Below, in pieces: positions 13,420 through 16,926 of a stretch of DNA of 64,000 nt. Source of the stretch: Candidatus Bathyarchaeia archaeon (GTDB lineage: Archaea > Thermoproteota > Bathyarchaeia > Bathyarchaeales > Bathycorpusculaceae); assembly GCA_038883795.1 (NCBI GenBank), contig JAVZLK010000007.1:22111-86110 (forward strand), written 5' to 3'. Position 1 is the first letter of the stretch. The number at the start of each line of letters is the position of its first letter. The notes beneath the pieces were generated by a model. It had not been told where the DNA came from, did not search any database, and saw only the letters and a list, made by a program, of their open reading frames with translations. Position numbers and translations under genes: made by a program.

Positions 13420-14580
13420 TTATAGAGCCTTGAAAGCTTCGAACCATCTGTTATAAAGCGCCAGCATGTCAAGGGAAACGCTTGGCTTCCGCTCTTCCAA
13501 TATTTGTCTGAAATCGTCCATTGTTAAGAATCTTGGCTTAGCCAACTTATTTGCGGCTTGACCAGACTCGAAGAATTCGCCTATAATTTTTAGTTGTGCT
13601 GATTGGCAAACGTCTCTTATGTCGCTTCCAGAAAAGCCTTCGGAAAGCCTAGCCAATTCGTGCAGGTCAACGTCTGGAGCAAGCTTCAAATGGCTGGTGT
13701 AAAGCTTAAACATCATCAACCGCGTGTGGTGGTCTGGAAGGGGCACCAAAATTCTTTTCTGAAATCTTCTGATGAAAGCCCAGTCCAAATCCCAAGGCTT
13801 GTTTGTTGCTCCAATAACGTAAACGTGAAGATTCTTACCCTTGTCTATAATGCCGTCGGTTTCCTTCAAAAATTGGTTTCGAACCCGAACTTCCCCGCCA
13901 ACCTCATTTGAATGTCGCCCCATAAGAGAATCCAACTCGTCAATGAAGACTATGGCGGGTTTTCCTTCCAAAGCTGATTTTCTAGCAGAAGCAAAAAGTT
14001 TAGCAACATTTTGTTCAGCTTCGCCTAACCACTTGGACATTATTGAAGCTGCATCAATAGAAATGAAAGTGGCGTCTATCTCTGTAGCAACAGCCGCAGC
14101 CAACAAAGTCTTTCCACATCCAGGCGGACCAAACAATAGAATGCCCCTCGGCCAGCCTAAGGGGAAGAGGTCTGGTCTCTGAACTGGATAAACTATGGCT
14201 TCTTTGATTGCCTTTTTCGCATTTTCCAGGCCGATGACTTCTTCCCATTTCACGTTTGGCTTTTCAGTAACTATTAATTCCTCATAAGTTGATTTTCCCT
14301 GGCTAGTTTTGGCGCCGGCTTCAACATTAGCGGCTTCCTCTTGTGGCGGTATAGGCGCTGCGCCTTGCAAAGCCTTTATTCTTTCTTGGTAGGCTATGGC
14401 TCTTTGAATATACACCTTGTTTAGGCTATATTCGGGATATAACTGTACAAGTTTTAGGAGGCTCTCAATAGCCTTTTGATACATAGTTATTGCCATACCG
14501 CGGGACCCTTGCTTATCTAAGCGAACGGCTTCCAAGGCGTAATTGGTTGCGGCTTTCTCAAGTTCTTGGGAAGCACTCAT
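13420..14580 (-). CDS. cdvC: Vps4-like AAA ATPase CdvC (MIT + AAA)
   Basis: N-terminal MIT domain (A..YALEAVRLD..G...AI.MY); GPPGCGKT; SKWLGEAE; FIDELD; GFSGSDI. Confidence 0.95.
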   Translation of the reverse strand: MSASQELEKAATNYALEAVRLDKQGSRGMAITMYQKAIESLLKLVQLYPEYSLNKVYIQRAIAYQERIKALQGAAPIPPQEEAANVEAGAKTSQGKSTYEELIVTEKPNVKWEEVIGLENAKKAIKEAIVYPVQRPDLFPLGWPRGILLFGPPGCGKTLLAAAVATEIDATFISIDAASIMSKWLGEAEQNVAKLFASARKSALEGKPAIVFIDELDSLMGRHSNEVGGEVRVRNQFLKETDGIIDKGKNLHVYVIGATNKPWDLDWAFIRRFQKRILVPLPDHHTRLMMFKLYTSHLKLAPDVDLHELARLSEGFSGSDIRDVCQSAQLKIIGEFFESGQAANKLAKPRFLTMDDFRQILEERKPSVSLDMLALYNRWFEAFKAL

Positions 14581-14592
14581 ATCGGAACACTC

Positions 14593-15486
14593 CTATCCGG
14601 ATTTTAATTCAATTTTTATTTTTCCTTTGGCTCCCAAACTTTCAAGAGCCTTCTCAATTTCTTCATAAGAGGCTTTCAAATCAACCGAGCAACGTTTCAG
14701 GTCAATTTCTCCATTACTCTTCTTAACATAGTCGAGGAGAACATCTTCTAATGATGGTTTTTCAACTTTTAAGGAAATTTCTTGAATCTCAGCTTTCTTA
14801 AAAGAAAGGAGGGTTTGAGAAGAATTTCTTTCAGAATCCTCGACTGTTTCATTCGCTATGGCTTGCGAACAGTTAGCGGCTAAGGCTACCATTTCTTTTA
14901 ATGTAGTTTTTTCAGGTTCTGGCGTTTCTAAAGTGGCGGGCGGTTCAGGGAGCTCCTCACTCAATTTTTGTTCGAGGAAGCTTGAAACTTCTTTTAATAT
15001 TTCTTCGCCACCGGGTGTTTTCTTGCCCACGGGAATTAGGGTTTCGTCTGCTGTTATTTTTGTTGAATATAACGTTTCGCTTATTGTTTCGTTAACCTTG
15101 CTAAGTTCTGATGAGACATCTGGCAAAACTTCATACAACTGTTGCGAAACACTCTGCAGAATTTTTAGGGCTGGTTTTAAATCGAAAACTATGTCGCTTA
15201 ACTCTTTTATTGTTTCAAGTCTGAGAATTACACGTTCTATGGCTAACTCTACATTGTAAAGAAACTTTATCAGCTTTCTAATTTCTGCAATTTCGTTGGC
15301 GCAGAGGGTTGCCCTTTCCTTATTTTTATTGTTGAGGGCGTTTATGCATGTTTGAAAGAGGATTCTGTCTCTTTCTTTCAGTCTGAAACTTGCTTGTTCA
15401 AGTTTGTTACGTTGAACTTTTAAGGTTTGTATTGATTTTATAACTACTTCACGGAGTGGAGGGCTTTGGCGAATAAATCCTTTAAT
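14593..15486 (-). CDS. cdvB: ESCRT-III protein CdvB with C-terminal winged helix; proposed ATT start, 297 aa
   Basis: The frame stays open 116 codons upstream of the called TTG and encodes a Snf7 core (RATLCANEIAEIRK..ERVILRLETIKEL) paralogous to 16264..16926; MIM2-like ELPEPP; C-terminal wH; GGAGG 8 nt before ATT 15486. Confidence 0.85.
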   Translation of the reverse strand: MKGFIRQSPPLREVVIKSIQTLKVQRNKLEQASFRLKERDRILFQTCINALNNKNKERATLCANEIAEIRKLIKFLYNVELAIERVILRLETIKELSDIVFDLKPALKILQSVSQQLYEVLPDVSSELSKVNETISETLYSTKITADETLIPVGKKTPGGEEILKEVSSFLEQKLSEELPEPPATLETPEPEKTTLKEMVALAANCSQAIANETVEDSERNSSQTLLSFKKAEIQEISLKVEKPSLEDVLLDYVKKSNGEIDLKRCSVDLKASYEEIEKALESLGAKGKIKIELKSG

Positions 15487-15516
15487 AGCTTTTCCCTCCG
15501 CCCGCTACTTTATGCC

Positions 15517-16248
15517 TTATATGCTCGCCTTTCCCAACTCTTTCACATAAACAATCACAGGCGGCTCCGGAAGATCAGGAGCGCTAGGCGATGATGTTGA
15601 CGCCTCAGTTGTTTCTTTACTTTTTTCCTGTTCCAGTGGTTTTGGCGTTTCACCCAATATAATGTTTGTAAGCTTGGTTTTTGTCTGCTCCAGGTCACTT
15701 TTCTTTGCGTTAACTCTTTTCAGATTTTCTTGTATTATGGAAAAAGCTGTTTCATAAGATTGGTCGTCTACTTTTCCAATCTCATGTTCAAGTTCAAGAT
15801 GCACCAAAGCGTAGTTAAGTTCCTTAATTTCGTTGGCGCATTTGGCTATTTCCTTGTCAGTCTCCTCTATAAGGGCTTGGGCTTCAGTTTTCAACTGGTT
15901 TAATGCGCCATCAAAGTTGCTGTGGAGTTCTTCGTAGAGTTCTGATGAAATCTTCTTCTTTTCTAAAAGTTCTTTGAGGGCTTGGTTTTTGCGCCATAAG
16001 AGGGGAATTTGATCGCATAAAGCGTTTGCTTCTGCTTTAATGTGTGATGTGAGTGTAACATCTGCTCCATCGAATTTTAGGTGTTCCATGGAGTATTTTA
16101 AGAATTTTCCGTCGCCTTGTTCTATGAAGACGGCGTCAAATTTTCCGCTTGGAGTTAATGCGAAAGAAGCTATTTTGCCTATTGGGCATCCATATTCGTC
16201 TTTAATTTGTTTTCCAAGAGAAAGAAAAGGATTGGGGGTTTGTGACAT
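15517..16248 (-). CDS. cdvA: Cell division protein CdvA
   Basis: PRC-barrel-like N-terminus (LGKQIKDEYG..IGKI), long coiled coil, LELEHEIG motif, C-terminal PPVIVYV beta-strand; lies between two ESCRT-III genes. Confidence 0.88.
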   Translation of the reverse strand: MSQTPNPFLSLGKQIKDEYGCPIGKIASFALTPSGKFDAVFIEQGDGKFLKYSMEHLKFDGADVTLTSHIKAEANALCDQIPLLWRKNQALKELLEKKKISSELYEELHSNFDGALNQLKTEAQALIEETDKEIAKCANEIKELNYALVHLELEHEIGKVDDQSYETAFSIIQENLKRVNAKKSDLEQTKTKLTNIILGETPKPLEQEKSKETTEASTSSPSAPDLPEPPVIVYVKELGKASI

Positions 16249-16263: not shown

Positions 16264-16926
16264 TTAAGAGGTTTCTGTTGGCGCCTTTTCGCTTATGGGA
16301 GTTGTTGGAATTCCTGGTGGCAGCTCTGGGAACTTTTCTTTGATTCTTTGTTCTGCAACTGTGGCTGCTTCTGTGAGAATTTTCTGGGCATCTTCATTTA
16401 CCGTGTCAAAGTTTAGGGTCATTCCAGAACTTTGTCCAGCCTCGATCATTATGCCGCTTAAAATGTTGCCTATTTCGCCAAGTTCAGTTTCCGCTTCTGG
16501 GAAAACGCTTGCGAGTCCAGCTCTCACAGATCTTAAAACACCAACTGCTGGTCCTAACGTGGAAACTACATCTCCAAGTTCTGATACCGTTCGTAAACGT
16601 AATACTATTTGTTCAAGGGCAAGTCTAGCGTTCATTATTAGTTTCTCCATTTTGCGAATTTCAGCTAATTCATTGGCGAAAACGTTTGCGCGGGCGGTGT
16701 CATGCTTTGTGTAGGCGTCAACTATCCTTGCAAATATCGCTTTGTCTCTCTGGCTGAACCTTTCAGACGCTTGATCTAGCTTCTGAACTTGAAGTTCAAT
16801 GCGTCTTACGGCGAAGTCTAAGCGTGGCTTTAAAGGTCCTGGTGGTCTCACGGCCTCTTTTATGCGGGTTGTGAAGGGTTGCTCTTCTCTTCTGCTTTCC
16901 CATTTTTTACCAAATCTTTCAGACAA
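16264..16926 (-). CDS. ESCRT-III/Snf7 paralog without wH domain (CdvB1/2-like)
   Basis: RANVFANELAEIRK and ALEQIVLRLRTVSELGD motifs; MIM2-like FPELPP; TTG start behind GGAGGT. Confidence 0.92.
   Translation of the reverse strand: MSERFGKKWESRREEQPFTTRIKEAVRPPGPLKPRLDFAVRRIELQVQKLDQASERFSQRDKAIFARIVDAYTKHDTARANVFANELAEIRKMEKLIMNARLALEQIVLRLRTVSELGDVVSTLGPAVGVLRSVRAGLASVFPEAETELGEIGNILSGIMIEAGQSSGMTLNFDTVNEDAQKILTEAATVAEQRIKEKFPELPPGIPTTPISEKAPTETS

Follow-up and report, generated by a model that had tools for sequence, protein, structure and literature searches.

The winged-helix cdvB gene of Bathyarchaeia, which encodes an ESCRT-III division protein, appears to begin with a near-cognate codon instead of one of the usual starts. 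The case is set out here for a stretch of 64,000 nucleotides from a Candidatus Bathyarchaeia archaeon (contig JAVZLK010000007.1, positions 22,111 to 86,110), called the window below, in which four genes follow one another in the same direction on the minus strand from 16926 to 13420: an ESCRT-III paralog, cdvA, the winged-helix cdvB and cdvC (Table 1). ATG, GTG and TTG are referred to as canonical starts, and ATT, ATC and ATA together as ATH (AUH in the mRNA). The ATT at which cdvB is taken to open in the window is very probably the right start, and one instance of a near-cognate start found clade-wide on the main division gene. On balance we favour a reading in which initiation at this codon depends on a Shine-Dalgarno (SD) sequence, is probably weak, and has long been retained.

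This start had been proposed in an earlier annotation of the window (the sequence-only reading), and the layout given there is borne out: the frame is as described, no canonical codon precedes the TTG at 15138, and a GGAGG lies 8 nt before the ATT. From stop to stop the cdvB frame covers 14593..15504 (303 codons), with zero ATG, GTG or TTG between the upstream in-frame TAG and the TTG at 15138-15136. That TAG, earlier placed at about 15505, is real and can be fixed at 15507-15505, and the number of codons missed by a start at the TTG is indeed 116 ((15486-15138)/3). The intergenic gap from the cdvA stop to the ATT is 30 nt, and the two genes share the same frame in the window with two stops between them.

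The gene was found in 40 of the 41 related genomes searched, and a scan of species-representative genomes gave 314 relatives, the best 80 of which were kept, all titled as metagenome-assembled genomes of Candidatus Bathyarchaeia or Bathyarchaeota. After loci identical over -60..+120 nt were dropped, 97 of 110 remained. To place the start of each, the protein alignment was extrapolated as far as residue 1 of the query, and the closest codon able to start and standing just before a Lys or Arg codon was taken; 13 loci were assigned manually, within three codons. Independent MAFFT alignments, one of the proteins and one of the DNA, bring these codons into a single column in nearly all rows. The aligned start codon in these 97 distinct loci is ATC in 56, ATT in 16, ATA in 12, ATG in 8, GTG in 3 and TTG in 2, that is, ATH in 84 and canonical in the other 13, and where canonical starts are present they occupy the same aligned codon as ATH. 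From the upstream stop to codon +10 there is no canonical in-frame codon in 63 of the 84 ATH loci, and through +17 there is none in 59. An in-frame stop stands one codon upstream of the ATH in six loci (L069, L094, L097, L099, L101 and L110), one of which, L097, reads GGT TAA AAA ATT. The consensus after ATH varies at every third base, as the motif before it does not. Local replacements of the start are also visible: L087 and L090 read ATT AAG, the related L080 reads ATC ATG, and L078 and L083 read GTC ATG, an ATG having arisen at the next codon; with an ATG next door the former ATH is free to become a codon unable to start, and this pattern supports ATH as the start elsewhere. Since the same arrangement recurs across so many distinct loci, it lies beyond chance, and AUH is very likely the codon at which cdvB translation is initiated. 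Alignment of ortholog 5' ends had been named in the sequence-only reading as the check on its proposal, and a near-cognate codon proves to be conserved, both in these loci and in 90 of the 106 clade rows of the tree described below. Nor do all close orthologs have canonical starts, as three of the four congeners, independently assembled, carry ATT and one (L005) carries ATG.

A GGAGG is found within 22 nt upstream of the start in 96 of the 97 loci. Its distance to the start ranges from 3 to 13 nt and is 8 nt in 69 of the 96, but this spacer is unevenly shared, being present in 65 of 84 ATH loci vs 4 of 13 canonical loci (Fisher p 0.0014, uncorrected for relatedness). Tighter spacing in the ATH loci fits a weak codon that would need exact placement. 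The GGAGG sits in a longer motif, GTAGCGGGCGGAGGG, conserved at 59-100% per position over 96 loci, and a 12-mer of it is unique in the genome. This motif is non-coding, because its variable distance to the ATH puts it in different frames. The 3' end of the 16S rRNA of the window's genome, ending in GATCACCTCCT, pairs with GGAGG only within the motif, and the idea that all of GTAGCGGGCGGAGGG is an extended SD was rejected on this ground. Just before the SD core, the nine bases GTAGCGGGC (15500-15508, minus strand) are conserved across genera at 59-90% per position. Forty-seven loci have six codons between the nearest in-frame stop upstream and the start; in them this stop coincides with the TAG of the motif, and eight such loci that were inspected have TAG, TAA or a TAG-equivalent there. 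An Rfam search of 15300-15700 at E up to 1 returned no family, a promoter and terminator scan of bacterial type gave nothing usable, and a slippery GGGAAAA heptamer was rejected as the stretch is not conserved.

The codons upstream of the TTG encode recognisable ESCRT-III sequence. A Pfam Snf7 match spans residues 18-143 of the protein read from the ATT (E 3.1e-07, 30.7 bits vs a cut-off of 27.3), and the 116 residues in question can be aligned, at 40% identity, to residues 22-134 of the paralog encoded at 16264-16926 (E 2e-28); the earlier claim, made by eye, that they form an ESCRT-III core alignable to that paralog is upheld by both results. A profile of 30 orthologs matches the solved CdvB2 9s97 from profile position 1 (chain residues 23-213, E 2.3e-33) and the solved CdvB 9s9j (E 1.3e-28), and its positions 247-294 give a weak but specific match to the CdvB winged helix 2xvc_A, named ESCRT-III (E 8.8e-04). 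In the winged-helix region Pfam finds a sub-threshold TFA2_Winged_2 only (16.4 bits vs 26). In Sulfolobus the C-terminal winged helix is the CdvA-binding part. The linkage is typical of CdvB, with a CdvA domain upstream and AAA, MIT and Vps4_C domains downstream. The segment L179-P180-E181-P182-P183 (14938-14952, minus strand) is invariant in the 30 orthologs and aligned to LPDLP of the solved Sulfolobus CdvB; we take it to be, probably, MIM2, the proline-rich motif recognised by the Vps4 MIT domain. Codon use is skewed at P182 of this segment, which is CCG in 74 of 97 loci. With a start at the TTG the ESCRT-III hairpin would lose helix 1 and much of helix 2, and most of the Snf7 match would go as well. 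At the other end, residues 1-5 align to I23-F27 of CdvB2, where its second amphipathic helix ends, and the Pro-Pro-Leu-Arg segment to the start of its third, so that the Bathyarchaeia N-terminus is shorter than that of Sulfolobus CdvB2 (profile position 1 being chain residue 23). According to the available text of PMC12818579, short N-terminal amphipathic helices of Sulfolobus CdvB paralogs mediate membrane binding, and liposome binding is abolished in a CdvB lacking 15 residues.

The history of the start was traced with a class sample of 121 genomes, 25 of which matched at a cut-off of 1e-35, and with 20 more distant loci, 6 of them ATH and 14 canonical. Several of the canonical ones read ATG ATC AAA, ATG ATT AAA or ATG GTT AAA. 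A FastTree tree of 117 rows, with N-terminal columns excluded, was rooted on three rows from another family; it is a quick tree with some flagged long branches, and its rows are kin, so the counts drawn from it are rough. All 11 outgroup rows are canonical, and one clade (support 95) holds 106 rows, 90 ATH and 16 canonical. Overall, 31 start-codon changes are placed on the tree, at least 12 of them between ATH and canonical, and at least nine of these are forced by well-supported branches. Most simply, the ATG would have been lost once, the Ile codon behind it would have served from then on, and a canonical start would have been regained about ten times, at shallow depth. The outgroups begin ATG-ATC/ATT/GTT-AAA, and in such a scheme a large clade would have lost that ATG and started instead at the codon after it (ATC, ATT or ATA), reverting now and then to a canonical one. 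The best reading of the tree is thus a near-cognate start that was inherited and long retained, and is not accidental.

A start lost by chance might also look like this. Under such a neutral history, ATG would have been lost without consequence, a strong SD would have sufficed for the next near-cognate codon, and the identity of the start would since have drifted. We consider this unlikely, yet it has to be taken seriously, since the third base of the start turns over freely in the changes just counted, ATG at 8.7% is not far from the 16.2% of G at four-fold sites, and the genome has other scattered SD-led near-cognate candidates, among them a singleton in Kae1/TsaD. However, the codon statistics are hard to square with free drift. 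The third base of the ATN start codons is C in 60.9%, T in 17.4%, A in 13.0% and G in 8.7% (ATG 8/92), against four-fold sites of cdvB at C 25.5%, T 31.8%, A 26.4% and G 16.2%; the internal Ile codons of the gene are 41% ATA and 27.7% ATC. Because of this excess of ATC over both four-fold C and internal ATC, the start site is not drifting like a silent site; it appears to behave neither like a silent site nor like an Ile codon, with ATC seemingly preferred. Genes normally favour ATG, and ATH nevertheless persists through most of a deep clade in which cdvA and cdvC of the same loci favour canonical starts. The tighter spacing in ATH than in canonical loci is likewise unexpected for a relic.

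The neighbouring genes serve as controls. The cdvA start is canonical in all 94 of the same loci that could be assessed, and the cdvC start in 94 of 97, the remaining three being one with an N at the site and two with ACG. In these two (L011 and L073) the aligned ACG lies 9 nt after a GGAGG, with no canonical codon within six codons, and the operon may thus have a second near-cognate start here. When the window's genome was filtered for long coding frames led by an SD, 205 canonical starts came out, with a handful of ATT, ATC, ATA and CTG candidates, which are listed in Table 1; the CTG of the epimerase stands, we assume, where the usual Met of that family would be. The Kae1/TsaD gene differs at its 5' end from those of the four congeners, where the sequence opens with ATG AAG, and its relatives are canonical in 28 of 28 assessable cases, one more locus being cut by a contig end, which makes its ATC a singleton. 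On this one comparator a lineage-wide habit of ATH starts was rejected: as the Kae1/TsaD ATC is a singleton and cdvA and cdvC are canonical, the lineage does not use ATH starts freely. By the conservation of its start codon, cdvB stands out. The Kae1/TsaD enzyme makes t6A, a modification adjoining the anticodon of tRNAs that read ANN codons. Among the tRNAs, ARAGORN, with introns allowed or not, found no CAU-anticodon tRNA (initiator, elongator Met or Ile2) in this assembly, which is 87% complete with 3.4% contamination; it found 50-60 tRNAs, including three near-identical tRNA-Ile(GAU) genes on separate contigs.

Table 1. Features of the cdv cluster and other candidate non-canonical starts in the genome (positions in the window, except where preceded by a contig label)
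Feature	Position	Strand	Remarks
ESCRT-III (CdvB-like) paralog, first gene of the cluster, no winged helix	16264..16926	-	TTG start; Pfam Snf7 E 2.8e-04, below cut-off
cdvA	15517..16248	-	ATG start, stop TAA 15519-15517; Pfam CdvA coiled-coil domain E 1.3e-09
Conserved non-coding motif GTAGCGGGCGGAGGG	15494..15508	-	Holds the Shine-Dalgarno core GGAGG, 15499-15495
Winged-helix cdvB, re-drawn	14593..15486	-	297 codons and stop TAG 14595-14593
ATT, proposed cdvB initiation codon	15484..15486	-	8 nt (15494-15487) after GGAGG; aligned ATH in relatives
C CCT CCA, Pro codons 9-10 with the preceding C	15457..15463	-	Holds CCCTCC, complement of GGAGGG at the SD
TTG, first canonical codon of the cdvB frame, not the start	15136..15138	-	116 codons past the ATT
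cdvC (Vps4-like AAA ATPase)	13420..14580	-	ATG 12 nt past the cdvB stop; Pfam AAA, AAA_lid_3, MIT, Vps4_C
Type I restriction R-subunit-like gene, ATT candidate start	C50:820-3144	+	SD, no canonical codon nearby; Pfam
Cytidylyltransferase-like gene, ATT candidate start	C22:11133-11480	+	SD, no canonical codon nearby; Pfam
FdhD-like gene, ATA candidate start	C7:21332-22108	-	Ends 3 nt left of the window; SD, no canonical codon nearby; Pfam
NAD-dependent epimerase, CTG candidate start	C1:93273-94286	+	SD, no canonical codon nearby; Pfam
AIR-synthase-related gene, CTG candidate start	C5:10060-11064	+	SD, no canonical codon nearby; Pfam
Kae1/TsaD gene, no canonical start	C2:19131-20135 (L131/L137)	-	ATC 6 nt after GGTGA

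The position of cdvB behind cdvA is itself conserved. In 96 of 97 loci cdvB is preceded by cdvA on the same strand, and the cdvA stop is 30-48 nt (median 36) from the cdvB start in all 96 loci with flank. Within the cdvB coding sequence, the complement of the SD falls in a pair of Pro codons, the first of which is CCT in 88 of 93 loci and the second CCA in 80 of 93, while the codon after the pair varies freely (CCA 30, CCG 24, CTC 14, CCC 13, CCT 11). Skewed columns are found elsewhere in the gene too, S228 for one being TCT in 82 of 97 loci. As tested, the skew at the Pro codons points to a constraint on the RNA beyond what the protein needs. At least four of the five SD bases are paired in the minimum-energy fold of 94 of 96 orthologs, with the Pro-codon segment as partner in 75 of 96; by comparison, of 71 canonical GGAGG-led starts in the window's genome, 30 have a paired SD. 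The cdvB initiation region folds at -18.8 kcal/mol, and only 4% of those 71 are equally stable. For the 8-bp helix between SD and CCCUCC, 92.6% of alignment cells are paired vs 52-80% when the partner is slid by 1-3 columns. Hairpins that sequester an SD, and translational coupling in polycistronic mRNAs, are a textbook bacterial mechanism, which the cdvB arrangement resembles in that SD and start lie in a predicted stem-loop, the 3' arm is in coding sequence and an upstream gene ends near by. That this helix is functional is nonetheless a suggestion we make tentatively.

The same observations could be read as termination-dependent re-initiation, in which only ribosomes that finish cdvA restart at the AUH 30-48 nt further on and free subunits do not. 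The constrained distance between the two genes, the predicted pairing of the SD in nearly all orthologs and a place among the most structured 4% of GGAGG-led starts would all be expected of it. Re-initiation coupling is usually described for overlapping or abutting genes, however, and a gap of 30-48 nt is long for a restart; a conserved SD with a fixed 8-nt spacer is moreover a requirement of de novo binding. We regard re-initiation of this kind as rather improbable.

It is very improbable that the true start is a canonical codon downstream (the TTG at 15138 in the window, a Met near residue 19 in relatives) and that the frame before it is a leader. Gene callers often pick such starts, with 96 of the 120 best database relatives lacking the N-terminus, and aIF1 rejects AUU in vitro (available text of PMC4705826). 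Yet from residue 1 on the upstream codons show protein-level conservation, with variation at their third positions, they hold most of the Snf7 match and align to CdvB2 from profile position 1, and the first downstream canonical codon of the ATH loci is anywhere from codon 1 to codon 121, with no conserved position. The sequence-only reading had expected the gene to be annotated as truncated. This is false for the window's own public protein, a 297-aa form beginning MKGFIRQ, but true for most relatives: beside the 96 without an N-terminus there are 10 that start at the ATH position, 11 that are longer and 3 that are slightly shorter. A length of 280 aa is shared by 77 of the 120, and those inspected begin MQTLK. 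The NCBI entries P0003, P0008 and P0084 begin at the same aligned position (the P0003 locus has ATT, the P0084 locus ATC), and from these and the window's protein it follows that at least one pipeline already calls ATH starts. A precedent for missed starts is Deinococcus deserti, where the available text of PMC2830850 describes proteomically verified non-canonical starts (ATC/CTG-type) that gene callers had overlooked. Those cases, so far as that text goes, belong to one genome, whereas cdvB is a single gene that keeps the trait across a deep archaeal clade.

An artefact is hardly credible: although the congener L005 has ATG and cdvA and cdvB share a frame in the window, a sequencing or assembly error at the ATT is ruled out because three independently assembled congeners also carry ATT (and ATH recurs in 84 of 97 loci), and a CdvA-CdvB read-through or frameshift fusion is excluded by relative frames spread 35/32/29 over the loci and by the two intervening stops. 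Metagenome contigs in Logan from three DNA runs cover 15424-15551 with no difference at 15484-15486 among the matches listed, which is weak evidence. Contigs of two independent metagenome runs (X1 and X4) start precisely at 15486, where the start codon opens, and may reflect strain-level variation or a branch point beside it. Contigs from an RNA library (X10) cover only 15011-15406 and show neither the start nor transcription.

To return to the SD-dependent near-cognate start that we favour, its mechanism can be sketched from what is known of archaea, where, in SD-led initiation, the duplex formed by the SD positions the start region in the P site and the codon is vetted by aIF1 (available text of PMC4705826 and PMC6237735). 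The GGAGG 8 nt upstream would hold the small subunit on the polycistronic mRNA, and AUU would be read by initiator Met-tRNA despite a mismatch at the third base, for a protein starting M-K-G-F-I. Because aIF1 blocks the binding of an AUU mRNA in vitro, AUH should initiate poorly, and such poor initiation would probably keep CdvB synthesis below that of CdvA and CdvC from the same transcript, while making it dependent on an optimally placed SD. Besides, the SD/CCCUCC helix may mask the site as long as it is not opened by ribosomes that complete cdvA 30-48 nt before it, and CdvB output could be sensitive to aIF1 activity. The sequence-only reading thus stands in that the gene starts at ATT and not at TTG; its further proposal, that a weak start limits CdvB dosage, has to be put conditionally. 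A dosage or regulatory meaning of the ATH start is a reasonable inference, and whether low or tuned CdvB output is the selected function we judge to be nearly an even call, leaning slightly against.

Several points weigh against the interpretation as a whole. The finding that only start-capable codons occur at the aligned site is partly one by construction, as the choice within three codons was the author's, and 21 of the 84 ATH loci do have a usable canonical in-frame codon near by, upstream or within the first 10 codons. The deficit of ATG is mild, about half of silent G, in sequences that are related, and selection against ATG is suggestive only. Both the N-terminus and the placement of the ribosome at the ATT are deduced from comparison of sequences. 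The aIF1 of S. solfataricus prevents the 30S complex from binding AUU mRNA in vitro (available text of PMC4705826), and given that result initiation at AUH may be very poor. As to the helix, RNAalifold predicts no consensus structure; there is no covariation, one pair being double-changed as in 375 of 500 shuffles, in columns that hardly vary; and the single-sequence fold z-scores are modest, at -1.20 for the window and a mean of -1.59 across loci. Seven ATH loci (L020, L027, L028, L110, L114, L115 and L125) are without the CCUCC partner. In contrast to established SD hairpins, the cdvB helix is argued from the conservation of its arms, the constraint on the Pro codons and its stability, with no covariation and with some loci lacking the 3' arm. 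Nor can the helix explain the upstream motif, because L027 and L028 lack the partner and still keep the motif.

Conserved near-cognate start codons are, to our knowledge, rare, with textbook cases that are bacterial; one such gene with an AUU start is pcnB. The bacterial infC gene (IF3), whose AUU start is described in the available text of PMC4705826, is like cdvB in having a near-cognate AUU-type codon behind an SD, kept across the orthologs of one gene while the neighbours are canonical. In contrast to infC and pcnB, start selection in archaeal cdvB rests on aIF1, aIF1A and aIF2 and not on IF3, and cdvB uses AUU, AUC and AUA interchangeably, with AUC the commonest. The product of cdvB is furthermore a division protein and no fidelity factor. 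The infC-type autoregulation invoked in the sequence-only reading cannot apply as such, CdvB being an ESCRT-III protein and not an initiation factor; control by the level of aIF1 is possible and would not be autoregulation. The cluster also invites comparison with cdvA-cdvB-cdvC of Sulfolobales, with which it shares the same proteins, the same linkage and the C-terminal winged helix of CdvB. It differs in that an extra CdvB paralog leads the Bathyarchaeia cluster and in that the cdvB start is non-canonical, the Sulfolobus cdvB starting, we assume, with ATG. In the full-text literature, with subscription journals and supplements outside its coverage, nothing was found about cdvB starting at a non-canonical codon, nor about any conserved archaeal start of AUU type.

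There are practical consequences, as alignments, structure predictions and expression constructs built on the N-truncated entries would be wrong. These truncations matter because, in the available text of PMC12818579, the N-terminal segment is needed for membrane binding in Sulfolobus. A bolder and improbable extension, which we mention as speculation, is that division in this Bathyarchaeia clade is licensed at translation initiation, CdvB being made only if ribosomes from cdvA open the helix and the stringency of aIF1 permits AUH. If true, CdvB supply and the timing of the ESCRT-III ring would report the translational state of the cell, an archaeal counterpart of the IF3/infC logic in cytokinesis. 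The finding itself is of an odd codon on a central ESCRT-III division gene in a widespread, largely uncultured archaeal class, lasting through deep divergence, and it offers a handle on how the ratios of Cdv proteins may be set from one transcript and on how strict archaeal start selection is in vivo.

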